In this document: positions 1 to 61,820 of the stretch, in pieces
Layout of the letters: each line of letters opens with the position of its first letter
Numbering within the stretch: position 1 is the stretch's first letter
Source of the DNA: an uncultured virus (IMG/VR IMGVR_UViG_3300018080_000160)
Taxonomy: Duplodnaviria > Heunggongvirae > Uroviricota > Caudoviricetes
Strand: one strand, 5' to 3'
Virus record (IMG/VR): IMGVR_UViG_3300018080_000160
Length of the DNA stretch: 64,000 nt
Translations under genes and position numbers: made by a program
The notes under the pieces: model-generated
The model's database searches: none
What the model was told of the DNA's origin: nothing
What the model saw: only the letters and a program-made list of their open reading frames with translations

Positions 1-127
1 AAGAAAAAGAAAAAAAGAAAAAAAGAAAGCGAGAAGTAATTTGAAGGCATTACGGATAGGCGGTAAGGTACACTTACACCCTTACATTGCTCTCGTTGAC
101 TTTTGCTCTCCCATACTCTCGAATTTT

Positions 128-44888: not shown

Positions 44889-45431
44889 TCAGATATACAT
44901 GCCACCGTGCGGTTCCGATTCTCGGTTCTCGTCCTTGTCCGTTTTTTTGTGCCCCGGAAGGGAATTCTGGCGTTTTAGAATTGGGATTATTTTTAATGTC
45001 CGCATTCCGGGAGGCAACTGGGCTTGGAGTTGCTCGATAAGAGGTTGCACTGGAAAGTGTTCTTCAATCATGGCTTGTACCTGTTTTTCGCCTGCTATGA
45101 TGGATTCTTCAATCCGCTCGTCTAATTGACGGTTTAACATCTCCCGGATAATGAACTCACCGAGTAGGTGGTAATACCGCTGCCCAACGCTATCGTAGCG
45201 CAACGAGCAAACGATAAACTCGGTGTAGATGTCTCGGGAAAGGGCAAAGAGAATATCTGGGGCCATTTCGTTCGTGCGTTTTGGGTCAAACATGGACGCG
45301 AGATCGTACCAAGCGCATCCTCCACATTCGGGGCAGACGAGATAGCAGGATTCGTCGTTTATTTCGGCAGTGTCAGTGAACCCGCACCGCCAACAGCAAA
45401 CAGTGATTTTGGACATTTTTTCGGTCACCAT
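44889..45431 (-). CDS. Zn-ribbon protein, first gene of an operon
   Basis: CWRC...CPEC; TATA box about 25 nt upstream (probably leaderless). Confidence 0.7.
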   Translation of the reverse strand: MVTEKMSKITVCCWRCGFTDTAEINDESCYLVCPECGGCAWYDLASMFDPKRTNEMAPDILFALSRDIYTEFIVCSLRYDSVGQRYYHLLGEFIIREMLNRQLDERIEESIIAGEKQVQAMIEEHFPVQPLIEQLQAQLPPGMRTLKIIPILKRQNSLPGHKKTDKDENRESEPHGGMYI

Positions 45432-46203: not shown

Positions 46204-46917
46204 TTAAGGTGAGGGTTTTTCCATCATAATCTTGCGCGGAATTCCATCAACCTTTTCCCCATTATCCCCAACAATCTCGATCTCACCACTTTCAAGAGAT
46301 TTTTGGACGTTAGCGACCTTTTCCGCGATCTCTTGCAAGCTCGGGATAGGTGACGTTCCAGCATGAATTTCGTTGTTGTGGCTTGTTGTGTTAACTGTAT
46401 TGATGGAAATGCGACGTGCATCCACATTTGGGCTGGAACCCTTAGATCGCGCCATGCGTCCGCAATGCTCGGAAAGAAGCTTGAGTAGCTTGTCCATCCG
46501 ACGCATGAGGAATTTCCTATACTCCACGTCGATAGCTCCTTCAAGCTCGTATTTGGTTAGATGGATTTGGGCTTTAATCTCTTGCCCAACGTCGATAGGC
46601 TCTTTGCTAAGCATGAATCGACGTATGGCGTCCAAATCATGCATGTGACGTTTGGCATGATTGGCGATAGATGTAGGATGGATTACTTCTCCCATCTCAG
46701 CCAAACGTATAGCTATTTCCTTTGGTTTCTTTTTTTGGACAATCATATTGTTGATTGTGGCTGCAAATTGGCTCACACAACATTTACATTGAGGATTGAA
46801 GACTTTGAGTATGCTATCAGGCACTACATCTACCGAATCAGATGCATCTTCCTCAGAATCTATCAAAGATTGTAATGGGCCTTCAGAATCGTTAGTTTTA
46901 TCTTTCACGTAGTTCAC
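46204..46917 (-). CDS. Zn-binding HTH protein, candidate terminase small subunit
   Basis: CKCC..I......KEIAIRL......SIANHAKRH followed by helical region; TerS role is inference. Confidence 0.5.
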   Translation of the reverse strand: MNYVKDKTNDSEGPLQSLIDSEEDASDSVDVVPDSILKVFNPQCKCCVSQFAATINNMIVQKKKPKEIAIRLAEMGEVIHPTSIANHAKRHMHDLDAIRRFMLSKEPIDVGQEIKAQIHLTKYELEGAIDVEYRKFLMRRMDKLLKLLSEHCGRMARSKGSSPNVDARRISINTVNTTSHNNEIHAGTSPIPSLQEIAEKVANVQKSLESGEIEIVGDNGEKVDGIPRKIMMEKPSP

Positions 46918-47181: not shown

Positions 47182-47325
47182 CCGTCTTAACCTATGTATG
47201 GTCAATCTAATGGTCAAGGCATACCTATATAGTATATAATAATAATAATAATAATAAATCTCTCTCTCTACACCCTATATAGCTAAGGCTTGACTACCAC
47301 ATTGACCACAATCAAGTTTAGACGG
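47182..47325. repeat. large imperfect inverted repeat around an AT-rich core (origin-like)
   Basis: TGGTCAATCTAATGGTCAAG vs CTTGACTACCACATTGACCA (16/20), outer CCGTCT/AGACGG, inner CTATATAG pair, (AAT)n(CT)n core. Confidence 0.7.
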
Positions 47326-47984: not shown

Positions 47985-48152
47985 AGCCTTAGAACCGAGT
48001 ATCTCTAATCTCTCAATTCCTCTCTTTTTTTGTCCGAATCTCCCATTGGTCCTGCATAACTCCTTCTATCTCTCCAAATCTAAGTGTTGTAGCAGATTCG
48101 GAATAGATTTAGCCCAGAAAGGTGCTATACGAAAACCATTTCATTTTTAGAT

Positions 48153-48194
48153 AAAAAAAAGGGAGATCCCAAGGCCTAAGCCTTAGAATCTCCC
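48153..48194 (-). terminator. 15-bp hairpin plus U8 terminator ending the accessory array
   Basis: GGGAGATTCTAAGGC-TTAG-GCCTTGGGATCTCCC-TTTTTTTT (G.U pairs on the minus strand). Confidence 0.75.
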
Positions 48195-48199
48195 ATAGA

Positions 48200-48328
48200 T
48201 TAGGAGTTAAGTGGGATTATGATGAAGTCTTCATCCCAAATCTGGGTTTGGATGAATTCCTGCATTTCATCATAATCCTCGAAGACGTGGTAATCCCCGG
48301 ATGAATAGAGCTCAAGAGCATAAGGCAT
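48200..48328 (-). CDS. acidic micro-protein (42 aa)
   Basis: MPYALELYSSGDYHVFEDYDEMQEF... Confidence 0.55.
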   Translation of the reverse strand: MPYALELYSSGDYHVFEDYDEMQEFIQTQIWDEDFIIIPLNS

Positions 48329-48329
48329 G

Positions 48330-48626
48330 TTAATCCACTATCCGCCATTTCTTCCCGTTTAGGTCTTCCCCTTCATAGACTGCAAGAGGTTTCCTATTCC
48401 GTTCATCAGGTAAATCGGAAGGCTCATCAAAGCAATTAAACTCAGATTCAATTTCCTCAAGTTCACGATCTGATATTTCCTCAATTTCAGGAAATATTTC
48501 CTCAAGTTCTTCACCCAAATCTTGAAATGCGTCAAGCATTGAATCGCAAGAGCCACAATCGAAGGATTTTGCAATAGACTCGATTAATGCTTCCACCTTA
48601 TTCAAAGGGATTTTTCCTTTCACCAT
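48330..48626 (-). CDS. acidic hypothetical protein
   Basis: 98 aa, GGTGA SD. Confidence 0.7.
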   Translation of the reverse strand: MVKGKIPLNKVEALIESIAKSFDCGSCDSMLDAFQDLGEELEEIFPEIEEISDRELEEIESEFNCFDEPSDLPDERNRKPLAVYEGEDLNGKKWRIVD

Positions 48627-48844
48627 TATATTTCACCTTTCTCTTGCTGAAGGATCTCGCGTAATTGGGCGATCTCCTCCGCGATCTCTTCCATAGAAGC
48701 AAGGATTTGGTCACAATCCTCAGCTCGAACCCGGCAAAATTGTGTTTCTTTCCGGAAAAACGACATTTCCCAGAAAAAATTAGAGATTTTGTCCAAAATG
48801 GTGCTTTGGACGATCTCGAAAGATTTACTTGCCATCTCGGTCAA
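48626..48844 (-). CDS. hypothetical protein
   Basis: Coupled to neighbours. Confidence 0.6.
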   Translation of the reverse strand: MTEMASKSFEIVQSTILDKISNFFWEMSFFRKETQFCRVRAEDCDQILASMEEIAEEIAQLREILQQEKGEI

Positions 48845-49181
48845 TCTCCTCGCTTTGTTCGTCGAACCAATCGGGGATTTCGGATGTAATCCGTTCCTTG
48901 CCTATGATCTCGGTATAATCCCCAGATTGAAGTTTGGCTTCTACTTTCTGCCAAATCTCTTCGTGGGAGCAGGCAGTTACTCGAATCTGCCTATATACCT
49001 TGGCTACTACAAAGACGTCAAGCTCCTTGCTTTCGCCGTTTTTTTGACCGGGGGTTTCGTTGTTTGGCCCAACCCGATTATTCTCCTCTTCCGGGGTAGG
49101 CTCTTCTTCAGCCAATTGGCTGAAATACTTCCTAATGGCTTCCATAACAGCCATAATGGAAGGTTTCTTTTCCTTTGCCAT
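48825..49181 (-). CDS. acidic hypothetical protein
   Basis: Start MAKEKK with AGGAG SD. Confidence 0.7.
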   Translation of the reverse strand: MAKEKKPSIMAVMEAIRKYFSQLAEEEPTPEEENNRVGPNNETPGQKNGESKELDVFVVAKVYRQIRVTACSHEEIWQKVEAKLQSGDYTEIIGKERITSEIPDWFDEQSEEIDRDGK

Positions 49182-49215
49182 TTTTGTTTCTCCTTTTAGA
49201 TTTGTGCCCAATGAA

Positions 49216-49260
49216 GGGCTTTGGTTATCGTACTAAGCCCTTTCTCTATTGAAAGAGAAA
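49216..49260 (-). promoter_or_regulatory. structured intergenic element A
   Basis: TCTCT-TTCAAT-AGAGA then GGGCTT-AGTACGATAACCA-AAGCCC. Confidence 0.7.
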
Positions 49261-49300
49261 AAAAGGAGAGAAAAGAGATTGTTGGTTATTTTCCCCTAAT

Positions 49301-49474
49301 CTACTTCCATGAAAGGGGATTGATGAGATCGTAAAGCTCATCAATGATTGAGTAGCCTTCTTCTTCCAGATCGCCGATCTCAAAGTTTAGAGATCGGACG
49401 TCCAAGAGAAACATTTTGGCTTCAACGTGGCTCAATTTAATTTTTACTGATTTCTTCTTCATTTTTACCTTCAT
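49301..49474 (-). CDS. small hypothetical protein
   Basis: Start MKVKMK with GGTGA SD. Confidence 0.6.
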   Translation of the reverse strand: MKVKMKKKSVKIKLSHVEAKMFLLDVRSLNFEIGDLEEEGYSIIDELYDLINPLSWK

Positions 49475-49497
49475 TCTATTCACCTTTTCACCCAACT

Positions 49498-49543
49498 TTC
49501 GGGTTTGGTTTATGTATTAACCCGAATTCCGATTTGCACGGAA
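49498..49543 (-). promoter_or_regulatory. structured intergenic element B
   Basis: TTCCG-TGCAAAT-CGGAA then TTCGGGTT-AATACATAAACCA-AACCCGAA. Confidence 0.7.
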
Positions 49544-49601
49544 AATAAAAGAGAAAAAGGGGTGTTTGCTTCAGAACCAACAAATATTCCAAATCTCTCG
49601 G

Positions 49602-49754
49602 TTATGCGTCTAAACCGATAGATTCTTCCAGAATCTCATAAAAATCCAAGAGATTCTCCAAATATCTGTTGTGGACTTCCCAGCTCGCGTTTAAATCCAC
49701 AACATTAAGGATCTCTTGGAAGAGATCGTAACAATCTTTTTTATGCTTGTCCAT
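49602..49754 (-). CDS. micro-protein (50 aa)
   Basis: MDKHKKDCYDLFQEIL...GLDA*, AGGTGAG SD. Confidence 0.6.
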   Translation of the reverse strand: MDKHKKDCYDLFQEILNVVDLNASWEVHNRYLENLLDFYEILEESIGLDA

Positions 49755-49775
49755 CTAATTCTCACCTTAGATTTG

Positions 49776-49810
49776 CGCCCAAGGAAGGATTTGAGCCTTC
49801 TACTCGGACA
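49776..49810 (-). ncRNA. tRNA minihelix-like element (acceptor stem plus T arm)
   Basis: GTCCGAG-TA-GAAGG-CTCAAAT-CCTTC-CTTGGGC-G. Confidence 0.55.
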
Positions 49811-49842
49811 TAGTTAGATTTTGGTTAAAAAAAAGGGAGAGA

Positions 49843-50004
49843 TTAAAGTTTAGGGACATCTATTTCGGGGAAATTTTCGAGGAAAAGATCCCGAATTTCC
49901 TTCACTTTCCACCCAATCTTTTCATCCTCTTGGGTGTATTTGACCAATAGGGCTATGGCATTGCCCATAATGGTCGTAGCTCGTTGTATTCCTTCTATAT
50001 TCAT
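49843..50004 (-). CDS. micro-protein (53 aa)
   Basis: ATGA overlap; MNIEGIQRATTIMG...VPKL*. Confidence 0.55.
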   Translation of the reverse strand: MNIEGIQRATTIMGNAIALLVKYTQEDEKIGWKVKEIRDLFLENFPEIDVPKL

Positions 50005-50156
50005 TTTTCTTCATCTCTTTTTGTTTCTTTAGGTTTATTCTCGCTAAAAACCGTCGAAAAGGCTATCCATTGCCGGAATGAAGAGATTTGCTCGTTATCG
50101 CAAATCTCCTCAACCAGAAATGCGGGGAGATGGAAATTTTTGGTCGTTATTGGCAT
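50001..50156 (-). CDS. micro-protein (51 aa)
   Basis: AAGGAG SD; MPITTKNFHLPAF...DEEK*. Confidence 0.55.
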   Translation of the reverse strand: MPITTKNFHLPAFLVEEICDNEQISSFRQWIAFSTVFSENKPKETKRDEEK

Positions 50157-50311
50157 TTTGGTTTCTCCTTTGATAGATTTAGTTTTACTTCTTCTCGGAA
50201 GGGCCTAAGCCTTGCACGGAAAGGCGATATGCCAAATTCCTTAGTGCGCTTAGATTTGAAACCAAACTTGCTGAATCTAATACATACAACGAGAAAAAAG
50301 AAAAAAAAGAG

Positions 50312-50617
50312 TTAAAATGTAGTTTTACACTTGAAATAGTGTTTAAACGAATCCATGGGCATCAAAAATCTACCTTTGTGGCCCATTATCAATCCCCGTC
50401 TAACTATTGCGCGGGGAGGATTCGTATTAGGCTCTTTCAAGTGGAAAACGAGTATGGCTTTGTGGATATTACCGGAAAGCTGATCTGGTGTTTTCCCGAG
50501 ATTTGTAACTTGTCCGGTAAAAATATAGCAAGGTAGATCGGGTTTTCGCCCAATCCTCTTGCGGTATTCCCTCAGATCGTCGTGTAGTTTGAAGATCCCG
50601 TACATTGTGAAGCTCAT
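50312..50617 (-). CDS. hypothetical protein
   Basis: 101 aa, ATGA overlap with the vWA gene. Confidence 0.65.
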   Translation of the reverse strand: MSFTMYGIFKLHDDLREYRKRIGRKPDLPCYIFTGQVTNLGKTPDQLSGNIHKAILVFHLKEPNTNPPRAIVRRGLIMGHKGRFLMPMDSFKHYFKCKTTF

Positions 50618-52863
50618 TTCAAAGCTTCCGCCTTGTACCTATCAATAGCTCGCGCGATAAGCTTTTTCAGCTCATTAGTGACCCGATCTATCGACGTACT
50701 AACCTTCTCGTCTTTCCGGAAGAAGTTTCCGGTAAATCCGTTAAGGTCAAAGCCTTCAACCCCAACCAAATAGGGTTTTATAGGCTCACGTCGGAGATCA
50801 TTCATTATCGCACCAGATACTGTTGGATCTTGGTCTGCTGATTCCCCATCGGTTATTACGAAGAGCAGCCGGAGTTTCTCGGGACGTTTGCGCAGCTCGT
50901 TAACAACATGAGCCATAGCAGGCCACATAACGGTTCCACCAGATGTTAATCTGATAAAGGTATGGCGGAATGTATGGAAGGGTTCCTCAAAGCCTTTAAC
51001 CCGATAGAACAGATTCTCAAAGTTCCACATCCCAAATGGGATATTGGCTTTAGCAAGGGCACCTGCGATAACTCCGGCAAATTTCTCGCATGAATCTGTA
51101 TCCATGCTTCCGGAAACATCCGTTAACAACCCAACAGATAGATTTAATCTGCCGGATTTCGCCAATTGTTTCCCACTAAAGAGCTTGGTGGTGCTTGGGT
51201 TACTCTTGGCTTTCAACAGGCGTCGCATGTTGAGCTTTCCCGAGTTTTTTCTCCGGAGTCTTTCAGTCCCTTCACCAAGTTTTCTGTTGAAGAAATTCCC
51301 CAGATCCTCACTTTCTTTATCTATGTGAAGATCCCGTAGTCTTTGGCGCAATTCGGGGGAGTCTTCCCGTAATTGGGGAGTTCTACGCATGCTTCCCGAA
51401 CCAGAACCCGCACCCGCTCCCATAACTTGCCCTTTATTGCAGAGCTTCTTCAAATCTTGCTTAAGCTCTTGCAATTGGCCCTTGGTGAGTTTTTGGAGCA
51501 TCTCATTGTCACCAGCTTGTTCTTTCTGCTGGTTTATGAGCTTTCTTCTATTAATCCGCTTTACCTTGGGGGTTTTAGGCTTTCCATCCTTAGATTTGCC
51601 CCCTTTAGGCTTCCCGTCTTTGGGCTTTTTGGGATCTTTAGGATCTCCATTCCCTTTCCCGTTTTTGGGCTTTCCGGGGCCTTTGGGATCTTTACAATCT
51701 CCTTTAGGCTTCCCGTCTTTGGGCTTTCCGGGATGATCTTGCGGGTTACCGGGTTGATCTCCTTGATCTTGTGGGTTACCGGGTTGATCTCCTTGGGGGT
51801 TCCTTGGTGGTCCTGCTGGATCTCCCCCCTTAGGTGGGTCGGAAGGTGGATTCGACGGTCCTGATGGCCCCCTTGGGGGTTCCGGCTCAAGAGATTCCCC
51901 GGATTCGAGGAATTCTCTCAAGTAGGTCAAGCAATGTTCCGCATGCTCTACGATATCTGACATATTCGCGCCTTTCTTCATTAGATTTTTGCGCAAATAA
52001 TTTCCGGCATGGAGAATCTCCCGAATCGCTCGCTGGGAGAGCTGCTCTTCCAAAGGTTTGTCAAACATGATTCCTCCGGAGAGAGTCTGTTGTAACCAGC
52101 TCTCCCAGACCTTTTCCTCAAGATCGTCGATCTGGTCGATTTTTGGACGCTCAAGTAAATAACCTTTGTCCACGTCCTCGAACCGAGTAATGTAACCCGG
52201 CGAATCTTGATCTCCGAGGAAATTGGTTAATACATCGGATGCCAAATTCAATCCTAATGCAGCTTTCTCGGGGATCGTCGGGAATTTCCGCTGAATCTTA
52301 GCCATTTCTTCCAGATCAGCGGTTCCGTAAAGCACATGGTCTATCTCATGCTTGAAGATCCGTTCTATCCGATCTATGAGCAAACCGGGATTACTCCCGT
52401 AGATTCGTGCTTTTGTATCTACCGAGATCACGATTTGGTCGTTGTTGGTCGCCGAAAGCCCATTCCCGTTCTGGAATTTAACGGGAATCTTTGGGGCGTT
52501 ATACTTCTTCTTCCAAAATTCGAATAACTCAAGCACATCGAATTCTGGAAGTTTACGTTCCGCTAAACCGCCGTGTTTGGCGATTACGTCACGTACAATG
52601 TCCCAAGGGACGTTTCGGTATAATGCCTTCTTTGGCTTCTTCACCCATGTTGAATAGGGTTGAAGCAAAATCTCCTTCCGGCTCACGTTTCGTATTTCCA
52701 GCTCTTCCCATGGCCCTCTAAAATTCTGCGGCCTGCAAGCCGCATAGTCACCCACTTTGACCCGGAACATGAACCCGTCGTTACATTCGACGGATTTTAG
52801 TGGATCTCCGTAGGAATTCCTTGGAAGGCCCATAACAAGAGCTGAAAGCTCTTTTTTATTCAT
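50614..52863 (-). CDS. vWA-domain protein with HExxH metallopeptidase-like region and P/G/K-rich linker
   Basis: HEIDH; MIDAS DVSGS...GGT...ITDG; QGDQPGNPQD and KPKDGKPKG repeats. Confidence 0.9.
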   Translation of the reverse strand: MNKKELSALVMGLPRNSYGDPLKSVECNDGFMFRVKVGDYAACRPQNFRGPWEELEIRNVSRKEILLQPYSTWVKKPKKALYRNVPWDIVRDVIAKHGGLAERKLPEFDVLELFEFWKKKYNAPKIPVKFQNGNGLSATNNDQIVISVDTKARIYGSNPGLLIDRIERIFKHEIDHVLYGTADLEEMAKIQRKFPTIPEKAALGLNLASDVLTNFLGDQDSPGYITRFEDVDKGYLLERPKIDQIDDLEEKVWESWLQQTLSGGIMFDKPLEEQLSQRAIREILHAGNYLRKNLMKKGANMSDIVEHAEHCLTYLREFLESGESLEPEPPRGPSGPSNPPSDPPKGGDPAGPPRNPQGDQPGNPQDQGDQPGNPQDHPGKPKDGKPKGDCKDPKGPGKPKNGKGNGDPKDPKKPKDGKPKGGKSKDGKPKTPKVKRINRRKLINQQKEQAGDNEMLQKLTKGQLQELKQDLKKLCNKGQVMGAGAGSGSGSMRRTPQLREDSPELRQRLRDLHIDKESEDLGNFFNRKLGEGTERLRRKNSGKLNMRRLLKAKSNPSTTKLFSGKQLAKSGRLNLSVGLLTDVSGSMDTDSCEKFAGVIAGALAKANIPFGMWNFENLFYRVKGFEEPFHTFRHTFIRLTSGGTVMWPAMAHVVNELRKRPEKLRLLFVITDGESADQDPTVSGAIMNDLRREPIKPYLVGVEGFDLNGFTGNFFRKDEKVSTSIDRVTNELKKLIARAIDRYKAEALK

Positions 52864-52889
52864 AGCTTTCTTCTCCTTATTGGTTTTTT

Positions 52890-52955
52890 GCGTCTCATGG
52901 AGATTTAAACCCCATTAGCCACTTATCAGGCTTCTCCTTTGCGGAGTAGAGACGT
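52890..52955 (-). ncRNA. degenerate tRNA-like cloverleaf in the 5' leader of the vWA gene
   Basis: CGTCTC-TA-CTCC-GCAAA-GGAG-A-AGCC-TGATAAGT-GGCT-A-ATGGGG-TTTAAAT-CTCCAT-GAGACG-C. Confidence 0.65.
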
Positions 52956-53010
52956 TGGTTAAAAATAAGAGAGAAAAAGAGTTTTTGAATCCAAGAGCTA
53001 ATCTCGGATT

Positions 53011-53160
53011 CTAATGGCTAAAAGCCATATCTACATCATTCCTTTCTGCCAAAATGTTGTAGACTTCCTTGGCTTTCGCCCAATCGCTTTCATCTTGCGA
53101 AAGCTCAAAGGCCATAGCCATACCGATTAGATCGGCTGAATCTCTATCTTCATAGTTCAT
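53011..53160 (-). CDS. acidic micro-protein (49 aa)
   Basis: AAGGAG SD; MNYEDRDSADLIG...AFSH*. Confidence 0.6.
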   Translation of the reverse strand: MNYEDRDSADLIGMAMAFELSQDESDWAKAKEVYNILAERNDVDMAFSH

Positions 53161-53191
53161 TTTGCTTTTCTCCTTTGTTATTCACCCAAAT

Positions 53192-53236
53192 TTCGGGTTT
53201 GGTTTAGATTTGAACCCGAATCTCTATTGAAAGAGA
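53192..53236 (-). promoter_or_regulatory. structured intergenic element C
   Basis: TCTCT-TTCAAT-AGAGA then TTCGGGTT-CAAATCTAAACCA-AACCCGAA. Confidence 0.7.
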
Positions 53237-53263
53237 AAAAAGGAGAGAAAAAGACTTTGGTGC

Positions 53264-53482
53264 TTAGAAAACGATAGGATCTCGAAATTTTAGAGCATCT
53301 TGAACGTTACGTTCACATGCCCATGTAAAATCAGTATATTCATCCCACTTGATGAAAGTGGTCACGTACTGATTCGAGATGGTAAATCCATCCCGATTTA
53401 CAGTTACTTTCATCCCATCTCTAAGTTCAACGTACACTTCCCCAAATTCAATCTCTAGCTTGAAGTATTTTTTATTTTCCAT
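53264..53482 (-). CDS. small hypothetical protein
   Basis: Start MENKKY with GGGTGA SD. Confidence 0.6.
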   Translation of the reverse strand: MENKKYFKLEIEFGEVYVELRDGMKVTVNRDGFTISNQYVTTFIKWDEYTDFTWACERNVQDALKFRDPIVF

Positions 53483-53501
53483 AGTATTTTCACCCATATT
53501 A

Positions 53502-53545
53502 GGGCTTTGGTTTATGTGCTAAGCCCATTTCGGATTTGAACCGAA
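53502..53545 (-). promoter_or_regulatory. structured intergenic element D
   Basis: TTCGG-TTCAAAT-CCGAA then GGGCTT-AGCACATAAACCA-AAGCCC. Confidence 0.7.
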
Positions 53546-53581
53546 AAAATAAAAAGAAAAAAGGGTGTGTGAGCTTTAGGC

Positions 53582-55402
53582 TCACTTTTCGCTGATCTCG
53601 ATAAGGGGGGAGTTAATTACATCCCCATCCTCTTTTCGCTCGGAAATAACGAGCTGGTTAATTTCCTGCTCGTAACAATCAGGCGAGAAGAATCTCTCGA
53701 AAAATTCCTTTACATGTTTCGAGATTAGGGACATCTCCTCACTATCATGCTCGGATGTTCGATTCTGGGCAAACGTGGTGACGTTTTTGTCCACAAGGTC
53801 ACCCAATTTGAACTTCCATCTCTTACCGAGAATATCCCATGCGAGCTCGCCTAATTGACGCATGCACGGGATTGAAGCTTTGGTTGTGCTTTCCGGAAGC
53901 TTAGCCCATACTTCTCGGAAGGCTGAAGCCAAAGCCCACGCACCACGTTCACTGAATCCCAGCTCTCGGTTATTTCTGAGAGAGATTTTGAACTTGGCAC
54001 GTAGGTAGTCTGCGATCTGGTCCTGAGTCGGGATTGGGAAACGAATCCATCTCCAGCGAGTAGCGACCGAATCAGATGGATCTACACCAAGAGGTAGACC
54101 ATCCGGGTTAAGTGAAGAGAGAATTATCGCGGATTCGACGGGAGAAACCACTTTTCGGTTCCAAACTTCCGGTTTATACGTGCCTTCCATTAGTTCTTTA
54201 ACCGTTGGTTTCTCTTTCAACCAAAGGGTGAGCTCTTGGAAGATCGTATTAAGAGCCTTCAAACTATCGTCGATCTCCTTAATTTCCTCAATCTGCAAGA
54301 GAGTTAACCCTTGAGTCGCGGCTAAATGGACAAATTGGGCTATATCTCCCGCTAATTTGATGGTCGCATTGTTTCGGAAGCCGTCGCTCACCTGAAAGTC
54401 CATTGCTTCATCAGACCTTGAGGGAGCAATGGTAAAGGCGTCTTTCCCCGGAGTTAATCCCAGAATCTTCATTAACACTTCCCCAAGGAAAGATTTACCG
54501 GTTCCCGGCTCCCCGGCAAGCATTATGCATGCTGGGATGCCACGATTCATTCGTTCTGCAATGGCTTTGATTGTTTCTTTGCCCTTGCCCATGTAGTCTT
54601 TGAATCCGTACGACCAGAGGTCGGAAGTGAATTGAGCATCCAGAATTTCCGCTGAATCATATACAGCGGTAAACTCCTTCTCCGATTCGGCCACCATAAA
54701 GCATGCGTCGACGTATCTGTATGCTTCAAGGTAATTCCCGAGAGATAGCGATCTAAGGGTCGCCTGCAAGATCGGATTGTTAGTTTCATCCAATTGGGCG
54801 ATCTCTTCAATCTCCTCGATGGTTCCGGGGATGTCGCTTAATGCCTGCATAAGGGAATAATTTCCGTCTTTCATCTCTTCCCTTTTTTTGGCCTTTTTCT
54901 CCCGTTCCTCAGCTTCTTTCTCAAGGCGCAAAGCTTCCTCAGATTGGAAGTTTGCCCATTTCTGATTGATCTCCTCGAACTTCCTTTGTTTCTGGGCGAT
55001 TTGCTCCTTGGAAAGCTTCCCACCAAACTTCTCTTGGAGAGAAAGCATAGCCTTGGTGTATTCCTCAAGGCTTGTTATAGATAGCTCGTTAGTTTTCTCG
55101 GAATTAGGGCTTTCGGGTTCCTTGGTGGTCGTTTTCTCGGGATTGAGGAAATATACGGAAGATCCATGCTTTCCCTCTTTCAAGACCAATTCTTTGGCTC
55201 TAAGTCCGTTTAGGGCATTGGAGATGTTGTAATTCTCCACGTCAGCCCTATCGAACCCAGTTTTTCCCCAATGCTTGTCAAAATCGCGGATTTCGTCTTG
55301 AATATCCGCCCATGGTGATCTCGGATGAGATCGTAAAAAATCCATGGCGATTTTGGTAGCTACGTCTTTCAGGGATGGTTGTTTGTTGTTTGTATCTGCC
55401 AT
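53582..55402 (-). CDS. MoxR/dynein-like AAA+ ATPase with extended N-terminus
   Basis: MLAGEPGTGKS; Walker B LLQIEEI; SSLNP; TRW arginine finger; near the vWA gene. Confidence 0.85.
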   Translation of the reverse strand: MADTNNKQPSLKDVATKIAMDFLRSHPRSPWADIQDEIRDFDKHWGKTGFDRADVENYNISNALNGLRAKELVLKEGKHGSSVYFLNPEKTTTKEPESPNSEKTNELSITSLEEYTKAMLSLQEKFGGKLSKEQIAQKQRKFEEINQKWANFQSEEALRLEKEAEEREKKAKKREEMKDGNYSLMQALSDIPGTIEEIEEIAQLDETNNPILQATLRSLSLGNYLEAYRYVDACFMVAESEKEFTAVYDSAEILDAQFTSDLWSYGFKDYMGKGKETIKAIAERMNRGIPACIMLAGEPGTGKSFLGEVLMKILGLTPGKDAFTIAPSRSDEAMDFQVSDGFRNNATIKLAGDIAQFVHLAATQGLTLLQIEEIKEIDDSLKALNTIFQELTLWLKEKPTVKELMEGTYKPEVWNRKVVSPVESAIILSSLNPDGLPLGVDPSDSVATRWRWIRFPIPTQDQIADYLRAKFKISLRNNRELGFSERGAWALASAFREVWAKLPESTTKASIPCMRQLGELAWDILGKRWKFKLGDLVDKNVTTFAQNRTSEHDSEEMSLISKHVKEFFERFFSPDCYEQEINQLVISERKEDGDVINSPLIEISEK

Positions 55403-55510
55403 TTTTGTTCACCCGCTAACGGGGTTGATGGTTAGAGCATTATTTCTTTGCTCTTCTCTTCCCTTTCTCATTTGAGAAAGAAGAGAGAAGAAAAAAGAAA
55501 AAAGAAAATA

Positions 55511-55849
55511 TTACTGGTAGAGCCTTTTTAGAGCGATCTCCCACGCCTGCCCTTCTTCCCCGGCTCGCGGAGGAACATGCTTGGGCATATCAATCAGTTC
55601 CGAGCTTGGTTCATAATCCTCAACAATCTCAGTGAGATTGTCAATCATTTCAACAAGCTCCGGCTCGATATTGTGTAACCCATGCCCAGATTCTGCTTCA
55701 ACCAAAATCCGAGCGATCTCCAGCTCGTGGGAAGCCTCTAAGAGGGCTTCCAAGACGACCCGTCTTAGACGCAAGACGGGAGCATTCTCAATGGTACAAT
55801 TCTTCACTAACAGCTCATTAATGCTGTTTTCGTTGTTGTTTTCTGCCAT
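55511..55849 (-). CDS. acidic hypothetical protein, first gene of the accessory array
   Basis: 112 aa; shares GAACAAAAATGGCAGA start context with the AAA gene. Confidence 0.7.
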   Translation of the reverse strand: MAENNNENSINELLVKNCTIENAPVLRLRRVVLEALLEASHELEIARILVEAESGHGLHNIEPELVEMIDNLTEIVEDYEPSSELIDMPKHVPPRAGEEGQAWEIALKRLYQ

Positions 55850-55955
55850 TTTTGTTCAATCCTTGACAAATTCGATGGTAGGAGTTATCGGGAAGAATTT
55901 CCGAATTACAAAAACAGTATCTCCCCGTAAATCCTTAATTAACCAATTTTTTGAC

Positions 55956-55972
55956 ATATATATAAAGTTATC
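55956..55972 (-). promoter_or_regulatory. archaeal-type TATA promoter for the accessory array
   Basis: Minus-strand GATAACTTTATATATAT. Confidence 0.6.
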
Positions 55973-56889
55973 TATGGCCTTTTTGCTTGCCCATAGCGAA
56001 AGATTGGATGAATACTATAGTCAACAAAGAGGGATCTCAGCCCTATTCTCCCGAATTTCGTGAATCTTTCCCCAATTTAAACTGCATAGACGTGGAATTG
56101 AGGAAATAACACTTTTCGTCTATACAGCTTTCCATTAGATACAGCCTATTTCCATCCCAATATTCCCTTTCCGTGCATAACTGGAAGAGCAGCATAGATT
56201 TCTACGGAAAGTGACTAAAAATCTAATGGGAAAGCCTTCTAAAGTCCACCAAATCGAGATAAAAAATTCAAGGCGATAATTTCAGATCACAATGTGAAGA
56301 GAATCGAGTAAAATCTGTTTTTGTTATCAGTTTTCCCCAAATCTAATGTATCTCTCAGGACCAATACGCAGTATAAATACTGGTAGATTTGGGTTTTTGG
56401 GAGAGTTCTATGGTCAATTTCCTGTACCAAGATTTGTTAGTTTAGCCGGGGAAAGATTCTGGTTAAATTGACTAAAGCATTGCCGGGGATCTCGAATGAG
56501 CATTATGAATTCTATAGAATCAAGCATAGAATCTATAGATTCCCGGCTAAACTGAAATTTAGGTGATCTATAGTGAGATCATACCTTTTTGTCTTAGCAC
56601 AACCCGTTTAGACTTAGATTTGGGGGGTTTTGGGCGAGTTTGGTCAAATTGGTAGTAGATTTCCGGTATTTGGGCGAGAATCTAAGCGCAAAGTGGCTAA
56701 AAAGTGCCTAAAAATAAGATGTCGCTCCACAGGACCGGAAAAGTCCTTTTTGTGAGCCTAAACATTAGATTTGGAGATTTGGGAAAGTGGTATAATCGAC
56801 CATTAGATTCGGCAGAGCAGAACGGCGGCAGAAAAACCCGGTTTTTAGGCGAAGCTAATTTTCCCGCGCTGGGGACTTTCCAAAAAGTA

Positions 56890-57369
56890 AAACATCTTCG
56901 GAGCTCATTATTCTGCAGAATAGATTCATCAGTTATGCCTCCCGGCAAGCGTAGTTAATTTAATCTTTGTGTGCCGCACGGAAAAAATGAAACATCTTCG
57001 GAGCTCTCGTCTCGGTTTTTGGCAGACAGTTGCCCCAATAGGAGGTAAAAATCGATCTCTGTTATATGCCGTTTTTCGGCGAGATAGCAGACGACAAAAT
57101 CGAAACATCTTCGGAGCTATTTTTCTGAACATTGTTTTAATCTTTGAGCGTATCTATGTTCAGTTTGCACCAGTAAAGAATGGGCCAAATGAACATTGTT
57201 TAGGATGAAAGAAAAAAGAGATAGGAGCCAAAGAGTTAGCGAGGTTTGGGGGTGACCGAAACGGGCACGGGAGGGTATATACAAAGGAGAAACTTTGCAA
57301 AATGTGAAGGGGGGAGGTAGAAATAATCCCGCTTACACCCTGTCCAATCGACAAACATCTTCGGAGCTC
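56890..57369 (+). repeat. four direct repeats AAACATCTTCGGAGCT
   Basis: Copies at 56890, 56990, 57103, 57353; a 15-bp copy also at 61303. Confidence 0.9.
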
Positions 57370-57774
57370 CTAATATAGTTCCTCTATTGTTTCTAATTCC
57401 TCTTCATCGAGATAGAGGAAACTTAGGATTGGGTACTCCACACCGTCTATTTCCTCCGCTTGTTTCGTGCTAACAGCACGGAAAATTGATATATCATAAT
57501 CGCCCATATTAGACGCGGTAGCGACTTTTGAAACGATATTATTATCCAGATCGAATACTACAAGAGAAATCTTCTTCCCTCGTCGAGCTTCAAATATTCT
57601 ATCGTTCACGCGATTGAATTCCTCTATTTTCCAGATGTTTAAGTTTCGGATCTGCTCCGCAAAGTAATCGTCGTCTTGTTCTCTCAGGAAGTCAATGATC
57701 ATACGTTTGATGTCTTTAGAGCGGTAGAACCCAACGCCGGATGGATAACGCGCCCAGAATTGCACATTCGTCAT
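57370..57774 (-). CDS. hypothetical protein
   Basis: 134 aa, AAGGAG SD. Confidence 0.7.
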   Translation of the reverse strand: MTNVQFWARYPSGVGFYRSKDIKRMIIDFLREQDDDYFAEQIRNLNIWKIEEFNRVNDRIFEARRGKKISLVVFDLDNNIVSKVATASNMGDYDISIFRAVSTKQAEEIDGVEYPILSFLYLDEEELETIEELY

Positions 57775-59106: not shown

Positions 59107-59182
59107 TTTTTTGACCTCATATAGAATAAAAAAAGTGGTCTATAGCTCCTATGTGAGCGAGCTATATTTAAGTTTAGCCTAC

Positions 59183-60689: not shown

Positions 60690-61820
60690 CTACTTTGTTC
60701 GAAATATGTCAAACCCCCCGCGTTTTTTGCTGCGTTTTTTCGATGTTCGTTTTTTAGGTTTTCTGCGCTTGGCGGTTTTCTTTTTCACGGTTGCTTTCTT
60801 GTCTTTTAGATTCCATTTCCGTCGCGTTGTAGTATCTGGGGTGACAATGTGAATCTTTTGAGGGATTATACTGAATGCAACTGTGGCCATTATCATTTTC
60901 TTTTTTGCAACATAAACGAACATCGAGATTTTATCGACCACTTCGCGGTTATGTGCGTTAAGATTCTGTTCGGCGAGGTATATAACCAAAGTGGTTAGAT
61001 TGATTTTCTGCTCTTTCAGAATTGCGTACACTCTCTGTCTGTCTGTGTTTATCAATACTTGCCCTACAATGTCTTTCACGCGCATCTGCTTGACTTCGTT
61101 CCTACTCGTGGCTCCATACTTCAAGATTTGGATTCCTTTGTAAAGTGGGTACATCTTAGCCGCTTTTTTGATAATCTTAACTGAAAGATTCGGGAAAAGA
61201 TGTGTTAGAACAGCGGTACGAGTCGTCTCATTAGCCTCCTTAAACTCTATCACCTCTGCATTCAAGGAGATTTCTTTTTTACGGAGTTTGTAGGTTCTTT
61301 TCAACATCTTCGGAGCTATCCGCGTGATAATAATACATGGAACGCGACAAGCATCCATCAACTCATTCAACTGCAGCATTGTTTGTTTATTGAACTTATC
61401 GAGCGAATCTACCACGACAATCTTTGGTTTGCCAATGAGGGTTGAATACCCAACTTCCTGAAAGAGTTCTTTAATTTTCTTTCGTGCCAAATCAACAAAC
61501 ACAAGTTCATGCGTGTTTTTGAATTTCTCGTTCACAAAATAAGATTTCCCAGTTCCTTGCGGCCCGGAAAGGATAACTAAACGGTTTTGGTACACCGCAC
61601 GAATAATTCTCGCTCTCTGCTCGGAGTTACCTAAATAAAATATGCTTTCGTCCGCGTAAATCTGATCTTCTATTGAATCTCGCAAGAACGGGTAATACTT
61701 GTAGAGTATTGGGATTATATCTACGCTTTCTCCCGTTTTTTCGAGAGTTTCGAACAAGTCGAATTGGTTTGCTTTCAAGTGTTTGAAAAACATTTTTAAT
61801 TTCATTACCAGTCCTCCCAT
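60690..61820 (-). CDS. divergent clamp loader large subunit-like AAA+ protein
   Basis: VILSGPQGTGKS; KIVVVDSLD; PCIII; basic tail ending GFDIF (possible PIP-like); near rfcS. Confidence 0.65.
   Translation of the reverse strand: MGGLVMKLKMFFKHLKANQFDLFETLEKTGESVDIIPILYKYYPFLRDSIEDQIYADESIFYLGNSEQRARIIRAVYQNRLVILSGPQGTGKSYFVNEKFKNTHELVFVDLARKKIKELFQEVGYSTLIGKPKIVVVDSLDKFNKQTMLQLNELMDACRVPCIIITRIAPKMLKRTYKLRKKEISLNAEVIEFKEANETTRTAVLTHLFPNLSVKIIKKAAKMYPLYKGIQILKYGATSRNEVKQMRVKDIVGQVLINTDRQRVYAILKEQKINLTTLVIYLAEQNLNAHNREVVDKISMFVYVAKKKMIMATVAFSIIPQKIHIVTPDTTTRRKWNLKDKKATVKKKTAKRRKPKKRTSKKRSKKRGGFDIFRTK

Follow-up and report, generated by a model that had tools for sequence, protein, structure and literature searches.

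Described intergenic modules and the array

Intergenic joints that combine the end of one transcription unit with the start of the next have been described before, both in tailed viruses of archaea and in phages of the T4 type. Here, we analyzed an array of small accessory genes in a 64,000-nt stretch of DNA (hereafter, the window) from an uncultured virus of the Caudoviricetes (IMG/VR record IMGVR_UViG_3300018080_000160), in which eight long spacers (S1–S8) separate co-directional genes, and compared these spacers with the described joints.

In the halovirus HF2, an archaeal tailed virus, class I repeats of 58–65 nt lie only in intergenic positions before early/middle-region genes, and their conserved blocks surround a TATA-like motif and, at a constant distance from it, a region of initiation (Russ, Pfeiffer and Dyall-Smith 2021, PMC8707807); these features have counterparts in the array, where the initiation region is putative. 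All nine HF2 intergenic repeats tested showed promoter activity, with the TATA box, the transcription factor B recognition element (BRE), and the start site within the repeat (PMC8707807). However, the HF2 promoters were demonstrated by reporter assay and primer extension, whereas those of the array are putative, and the HF2 repeats show no sequence similarity to ours, which carry two hairpins with compensatory changes and are placed after a putative U-tract terminator. The archaeal tailed virus HGTV-1 offers a second parallel, having a stretch that resembles a TATA box, together with an inverted repeat, before many small ORFs (open reading frames), namely most of those in the left arm of its genome, a motif that was proposed to serve transcription regulation and shuffling and was likened to the promoter early stem-loop (PeSL) elements of T4-type phages (PMC3950731, summarising Sencilo et al. 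2013). In the array, by contrast, the same cassette recurs in only four of the eight joints.

The PeSLs themselves are short composite modules, joining the end of one gene to the start of the next, that sit among the small variable ORFs of a hyperplastic region and show signs of recombination between copies (PMC4122927), much as is proposed for the spacers here. They pair a bacterial stem-loop terminator with a sigma-70 early promoter, whereas the array has an archaeal-type U tract ahead of the hairpins, and sigma-70-like sites were not enriched in it (8 vs. 13.0 +/- 3.5 in shuffles). For the U tracts, the closest likeness is found in cellular genes. The terminator motif of Methanococcus maripaludis is a U tract of ~23 nt, in which a pair of U4 tracts terminates most effectively and is bound best by aCPSF1 (PMC8716108), and internal terminators, together with internal start sites, are common within operons of an archaeon (PMC10450193). 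The array shares with these systems the presence of at least two U4+ runs within ~23 nt directly after a gene, and such terminators lower downstream expression when they lie inside co-directional strings (PMC8716108, PMC10450193); the difference is that they were described for cellular genes of Methanococcus maripaludis, while the present case concerns putative terminators in virus spacers.

The interpretation that we favor, and to which we would give about an even chance, is that the array consists of approximately nine short units whose long spacers serve as archaeal terminator-plus-start joints; in one version, the joint carries a 65-nt cassette that has two hairpins and recombines.

Spacer anatomy, U tracts, and the shared 65-nt repeat

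The array is encoded on the minus strand, as are all of its features given below, and comprises 14 ORFs from 55849 to 48200, whose translations were accepted. Eight gaps of 84–155 nt split these genes into nine groups. Every gap opens with a pyrimidine tract that includes a T run of at least five, a run length ~10-fold enriched in the spacers, and the gene after each is preceded by a Shine–Dalgarno (SD) sequence 7–10 nt ahead of its ATG (8/8). The word AACCA occurs at 10 sites in 946 nt of spacer, ~9-fold above background (p=2e-7), and is found in all eight spacers, before the SD in seven and between the SD and the ATG in S5. The folding z-scores of the spacers ranged from -0.93 to -5.32 (mean -2.49), compared to a mean of -0.53 in 60 coding controls of like length (Mann-Whitney p=3.6e-5), while a search for over-represented k-mers on the sense strand returned nothing specific. 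The anatomy of the spacers is real and not a chance pattern. Much of it had been recognized in an earlier reading of the DNA made without database searches (hereafter, the sequence-only reading), whose count of ~14 co-directional genes, pyrimidine/U tract at the head of all eight spacers, and AACCA ahead of the SD in seven of them are all borne out; the equal folding of shuffled spacers that it had raised as a concern was not seen, the spacers folding better than their shuffles as well as the coding controls.

Within this common plan, the spacers differ in detail. In S1 (55403..55510), the U tracts (55508-55491) are buried in a long pyrimidine/purine hairpin (~55500-55443), which is followed by AACCA and a GGGTGA SD. 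S2 (53483..53581) has a small hairpin, three U tracts (53562-53544), and a copy of the 65-nt repeat (53551-53487), and S3 (53161..53263) has U tracts at 53252-53236, a repeat copy at 53243-53179, and a separate AAGGAG SD. S4 (52864..53010) begins with a post-stop hairpin, followed by U tracts (52978-52961), AACCA, a four-way junction (52954-52891), a second AACCA, and the SD. The junction is cloverleaf-shaped and robust (-25.8 kcal/mol, z -3.9, with the minimum free energy (MFE) structure accounting for 70% of the ensemble). S5 (50157..50311) opens on U8 and U6 tracts (50311-50294) and holds several hairpins and two CAAATC/AAATCTA motifs. In S6 (49755..49842), a U8 run (49834-49827) leads directly into AACCA, then a minihelix of 7+5 bp with a 7-nt CTCAAAT loop (49809-49777) and a GGTGAG SD. 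The folds in S4 and S6 are those that the sequence-only reading had described as a cloverleaf and a minihelix. S7 (49475..49601) comprises a hairpin, U tracts (49558-49542), and a repeat copy (49549-49485), and S8 (49182..49300) comprises AACCA, U tracts (49274-49258), a repeat copy (49265-49201), and then CAAATCTAA and an AAGGAG SD.

To place the spacer heads in the context of the whole window, a U-tract site was counted wherever 23 nt held two T4+ runs, or a single run reached at least T7 (criterion from PMC8716108). Across the 64 kb there are 33 such sites on the sense strand and 68 on the antisense strand, which shows that transcription-sense sites are avoided. Of those 33, nine fall within the 8-kb array, each starting 3–44 nt past a stop codon; seven spacers hold two or three U runs, and S6 a single T8. 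The spacer heads thereby match the archaeal two-U-tract terminator pattern, from which we infer termination. The sequence-only reading had given the array a single TATA promoter at ~55960 and a single strong hairpin-U8 terminator. Both features exist: the only TATA box in the array region with an 8/8 match lies at its head (55955..55967, box at 55966, ~105 nt upstream of the first ATG), and the final terminator (48194-48153) is a 15-pair hairpin followed by T8. However, eight internal terminator-like U tracts had been overlooked, and since these match terminators, one promoter and one terminator is not a fair summary and the premise of a single polycistron is weakened. The array looks like nine short units rather than one clean operon. 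As a separate observation, upstream of the RFC gene (59107-59182, minus strand) ACCA lies ~33 nt after a TATA-like box and precedes a T7 run and then an SD; this T run, in a probable leader, does not fit a simple rule that every T run terminates.

The repeat first appeared in a repeat search as a 73-nt family with three copies, and alignment together with a covariance model (R1) resolved it into four ungapped 65-nt copies, in S2, S3, S7, and S8. All four are intergenic and lie directly ahead of the SD and ATG, and any two are identical at 38–50 of 65 positions. R1 scores the four copies, which are its own training sequences, at 78–86 bits, and the next best match in the 64 kb reaches 13.1 bits; S1, S6, and S4 score at noise level (12.3, 11.5, and 9.8 bits, respectively) and S5 gives no match. 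The suggested check by spacer alignment and covariance modelling thus recovers a structured element common to four spacers and absent from the other four. Its two hairpins (A and B) span 13 pairs, with 88.5% of the cells paired (reached by 0/500 shuffles), and five of the 13 pairs have changed on both sides (reached by 25/500 shuffles), a measure of compensatory change limited by there being four sequences only. Hairpin B is 93.8% paired with four of its eight pairs compensatory, while hairpin A in S3 and S8 is shifted in register by one base and so under-counted by the ungapped alignment.

The two hairpins group the copies differently. By hairpin A, S2 resembles S7 (14/17) and S3 resembles S8 (17/17), against 9/17 between groups; by hairpin B, S3 resembles S7 (25/29) and S2 resembles S8 (23/29), against 14–21/29 for the others. 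All four combinations of the two hairpin variants therefore exist in a 2x2 mosaic, and this incongruence indicates recombination between the copies. Other spacers also share parts: the gene 1 leader, into the first codons, is 71% identical to the 3' portion of S1 over 56 nt (D9), the heads of S4 and S6 are alike (D12), a further module is shared (D13), and the tails of S6 and S8 are alike by eye.

Several other ideas on the structure of the repeat were considered and set aside. A pseudoknot of the AACCA loop with the downstream TTGGGTG was checked by eye and misfits in orientation and pairs, and a closing helix (CACCC/GGGTG) around the repeat has 5 bp only and is common to S2 and S7 by descent. 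The palindromes are poor operators for a dimeric regulator, as three hairpin-A stems and two hairpin-B stems keep their pairing and not their sequence. Finally, hairpins that block the FttA exonuclease after cleavage seem unlikely, given that RNA goes directly from the polymerase exit channel to FttA (PMC11616081).

Evidence for a start module comes from the spacing of two short elements. In each of the four repeat copies, AACCA is preceded at a distance of exactly 28 nt by a TATA-like 8-mer (matching at 6/8 positions in S2, 7/8 in S3 and S8, and 5/8 in S7), and similar TATA-like/AACCA pairs occur twice in S4. A box of at least 6/8 lies 24–32 nt ahead of AACCA at 5/10 spacer sites vs. 6/73 sites elsewhere (Fisher p=0.003), and one of at least 7/8 at 3/10 vs. 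0/73. The HF2 promoters and the HGTV-1 motif, described above, add a strong precedent in favor of such a module.

Taken as terminator-plus-start joints, the spacers would work in two halves. In the first, the post-stop pyrimidine/T tract, typically two or three U4-U8 runs within ~23 nt, would act as an archaeal terminator of the pattern that cooperates with aCPSF1/FttA, as suggested by the pattern itself and published archaeal work, and would end or attenuate upstream transcription. The second half, for which the case is weaker, may be a start module for the next gene, made of a weak or regulated TATA-like box, an initiator around AACCA ~28 nt downstream, and a short SD leader; a start near AACCA would give a leader of ~20–30 nt with the SD. 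In S2, S3, S7, and S8, this start module would be one and the same 65-nt cassette, which retains its hairpins through compensatory changes and would have been passed among genes by copying and recombination. The first unit would be driven from the TATA box at 55966, with some read-through probably adding to downstream expression, and the region as a whole would be a hyperplastic, shuffling-prone block comparable to the HF2 intergenic repeats, the HGTV-1 motif, and the T4-type PeSLs.

A number of points weigh against this interpretation. The spacer TATA-like boxes are weak (5–7 of 8) compared to the eight perfect (8/8) boxes in the window, no purine-rich BRE was seen before them, and the spacers may hold no promoter. 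The association of TATA-like boxes with AACCA rests partly on paralogous copies and on AT-rich non-coding sequence. The compensatory changes in the stems indicate that selection has acted on a single strand in its folded form, something for which a plain DNA promoter has no use, and if transcription began at AACCA, the RNA would lack the 5' arm of hairpin B. The cassette is also missing from S1, S4, S5, and S6, and the spread of its copies could be recent rather than selected.

Alternative explanations

The strongest competitor, which we regard as possible but rather unlikely, is that one long early RNA starts at the 55966 TATA box. Its U tracts would be only partial internal terminators that grade expression down the array, and its hairpins would work at the RNA level, as leader structures that stabilise the message or control translation. 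The hairpins could, for example, protect downstream RNA after U-tract cleavage, or pairing between the pyrimidine tract and the SD could couple translation. This explanation accounts better for the stems and the SDs than does the joint model: both hairpins are kept by compensatory changes, folding is stronger in the spacers than in the coding controls, and an SD precedes each downstream gene, as is usual for genes inside operons, whereas three promoter-proximal genes in other parts of the window lack one. It is also consistent with the one 8/8 TATA box in the array and with the documented partial internal terminators of an archaeon (PMC10450193). In the MFE folds of S3, S4, S5, S6, and S8, moreover, the pyrimidine tract is paired with the SD region; however, base composition by itself predicts such pairing. 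After eight two-U-tract terminators in a row, hardly any read-through would reach the last genes, judging from published efficacies of 30-80%, and a single transcript gives no role to the fixed spacing of the TATA-like box and AACCA.

The sequence-only reading had instead proposed that the spacer hairpins imitate the acceptor and T arms of tRNA, which would let RNase P or RNase Z of the host cut a polycistronic RNA into single messages, a model to which we now give only a slim chance. All seven hairpins that it listed are present: those with a 5-bp stem and 7-nt loop at 53545-53529, 52914-52898, 49800-49784, and 49543-49527 (which make up four of the six hairpins with an NNYAAAT loop in the window, both strands), the two TCTCT-TTCAAT-AGAGA hairpins, and the hairpin in S1. 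Their likeness to T loops is superficial, however, as the T-arm rule (a 5-bp stem, a G-C closing pair, and a 7-nt UUCRANN loop) fits one of the seven, at 53545-53529 in S2, and fits it exactly; the other six deviate by G55, C54, or U56, or have loops of 6 nt (two hairpins) or 4 nt. What the loops have in common is AAAU followed by C, as opposed to the U-U-C conserved by tRNAs. The word CAAATC is moreover unpaired beside the SD in S5, S6, and S8 and sits within the loop of the second hairpin in S3, which marks it as a motif at the level of sequence and not as a T loop.

Dedicated searches gave no support for tRNA mimics. No Rfam tRNA or tRNA-like family matched 48100-56100 at E<=10 (25 matches, mostly generic hairpin matches to S1), and S4 alone gave one match at this threshold, not to tRNA, while the Rfam tRNA model (RF00005) scores the true tRNA-Ile of this virus at 57.9 bits. 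ARAGORN at 80% thresholds made no call in the eight spacers, vs. 32 false calls elsewhere in the window. Relative to tRNAs and tRNA-like signals, then, the array has one T-arm-like hairpin, one cloverleaf-shaped junction, and one interrupted helix of 12 bp, but its elements fail both the covariance model and ARAGORN, and most of its hairpins break the T-loop invariants. The S4 junction does have its arms in tRNA-like order, and its 6+6 bp could stack like acceptor and T arms, with ACCA 7 nt further on; the S6 helix has a 7+5 bp layout and a 7-nt loop. Yet the latter is followed by GCAA and not NCCA and has two similar minihelices in coding sequence, the S4 and S6 elements are single copies, and the AACCA of the 65-nt repeat sits inside a hairpin loop rather than behind an acceptor-like helix.

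The true tRNA, a tRNA-Ile (GAU) with encoded CCA (25508-25434, minus strand), lies amid co-directional structural genes in a spacer that reads stop, T tract, tRNA, ACCAAAA, SD, ATG, which is the layout of the array spacers and a point in favor of mimicry. A variant in which the S4 junction, the S6 minihelix, and the T-arm-like hairpins are degenerate tRNA-derived elements still cut by host RNase P/Z seems similarly improbable. If true, it would mean that an archaeal virus punctuates its accessory messages with tRNA mimics right after U tracts, in the slot that a true tRNA-Ile takes in the structural operon.

Site-specific recombination at the spacers, moving gene cassettes as at integron attC sites, is barely plausible: small co-directional ORFs with imperfect inverted repeats between them lie behind one strong promoter, and the mosaic lends some support to the exchange at the spacers that the sequence-only reading had envisaged for mobile cassettes. 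However, among the 58 ORFs of the window scanned against Pfam, neither an integrase nor a recombinase family turned up (the contig extends ~15 kb beyond the window), the repeat is present in 4/8 spacers only and precedes the SD of the next gene alongside terminator-like T tracts, as regulatory joints do, and ordinary homologous recombination explains the mosaic.

Gene content, viral context, and significance

The first gene of the array (55511..55849) encodes a 112-aa protein of no known family, and a duplicate of its start region and N-terminus lies at gene 2 (D9, above). Gene 2 (53582..55402) encodes a putative 606-aa AAA+ ATPase of the MoxR/CobS-like type, with a weak Pfam match to AAA_16 and Atlas features that point to AAA_5 clusters. 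Downstream are gene 3 (53264..53482; 72 aa from the SD-preceded ATG at 53482, the start in the ORF list being 53497) and gene 4 (53011..53160; 49 aa, no family). Genes 5 and 6 (50312..52863) overlap by 4 nt and encode 749 aa, with a weak VWA match and CobT-like by Atlas features, and 101 aa, respectively. Genes 7 and 8 (49843..50156; 51 aa and 53 aa) likewise overlap by 4 nt and are followed by gene 9 (49602..49754; 50 aa) and gene 10 (49301..49474; 57 aa). The last four, genes 11–14 (48200..49181; 118, 69, 98, and 42 aa), abut or overlap, with long spacers absent. Genes 2 and 5 look like the pair of a MoxR/CobS-type AAA+ ATPase and a CobT/VWA protein that is common in tailed viruses, which we offer as a lead only, based on weak Pfam matches (AAA_16 and VWA) and Atlas feature scores of 0.91-0.96. 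The remaining 12 ORFs of the array showed no family match in Pfam or PHROGs. Within gene 5, at 51590-51900, imperfect tandem repeats (D5, D6, D10) form a low-complexity linker rich in proline, lysine, and glycine.

The window is that of a tailed virus, encoding a capsid protein, a Mu-F-like head protein, a large terminase, baseplate J, and tail fibre-like proteins. Almost all of its genes are on the minus strand and tightly packed, with intergenic gaps outside the array mostly of -4 to +20 nt. Its clamp loader is most similar to archaeal RFC small subunits (4e-33), compared to 5e-16 for T4 gp44 and ~1e-7 for bacterial gamma/tau, and an ERCC4 nuclease is also encoded. The minus-strand start codons at 45431, 42233, and 46917 lack an SD and have a perfect or near-perfect TATA box ~30 nt upstream, a leaderless layout that is typical of archaea, and the first genes of units elsewhere in the window appear to be leaderless. 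The stretch is present in one DNA sequencing run, a sediment metagenome that is probably its source sample, and no RNA run was listed as containing it. On account of the RFC-like clamp loader, the leaderless TATA layout, and the sediment source, an archaeal virus was accepted as the premise for the host domain.

Other non-coding features of the window were noted in passing. Just upstream of the array, ~1.2 kb without a convincing ORF (56200-57370, minus strand) holds four copies of a 13–17-nt word with the core CTCCGAAGATGTT (~57366, 57116, 57003, and 56903, spaced 100–250 nt apart), with a fifth at 61315 within a gene; these could be replication-origin iterons or regulator sites. Palindromic GTGACAC/GTGTCAC words, often GTGACACAAATGTGACAC, are grouped beside strong TATA boxes (45520-45487, 62739-62715, 46993-46961, 1154-1131, and 953-920) and are likely operator sites for a virus regulator. 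On the terminator side of the array, the 600-nt non-coding stretch toward the gene at 46917 includes a short TTA/ATT microsatellite followed by TATA-rich sequence (~47230-47265, minus strand). At the window edge (positions 1-29, minus strand) lies a 29-nt pyrimidine tract on the sense strand, cut by the edge, and as the window starts within such a tract, further spacers of the array kind may lie outside it.

Searches for relatives returned little. The 606-aa protein of gene 2 had no relative in viral_contigs, with only itself found among 7,996 scored candidates, the 749-aa protein of gene 5 gave no tblastn match among GenBank phages, and the terminase had no close relative in viral_contigs or genome_contigs. 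The nearest relative of the terminase is 66% identical and lies on an 85-kb contig, with further relatives that are shorter or more distant. One IMG/VR virus in the terminase alignment, at 32% identity, showed no comparable array in the 21 kb examined, and the best R1 match over its whole 83-kb record had E=0.65. Two IUPAC patterns built on hairpin B and its flank matched 3 and 0 times in viral_contigs, 3 times in metagenome_contigs, and at 8 scattered places in genome_contigs, none of them a relative: the six matches in the first two sets were inspected and are unrelated and apparently coding, and the eight genome_contigs titles are unrelated and mostly bacterial. A blastn search with S7 against GenBank phages found three short partial matches only (20-24% of the query, E 0.03-0.4).

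If the spacers are indeed terminator-plus-start joints, the array would add a case, in an archaeal virus from sediment that has hardly any relatives in the databases, of an ORFan-rich variable region built from short units joined by reusable, recombining modules. The order of the parts, a U tract and then two compensatorily kept hairpins, is unusual, and the array offers a concrete test case for how archaeal transcription units may be ended and restarted within ~100 nt. This would suggest that tailed viruses of archaea widely organise and shuffle their accessory genes in this manner, as haloviruses and T4-type phages are known to do.

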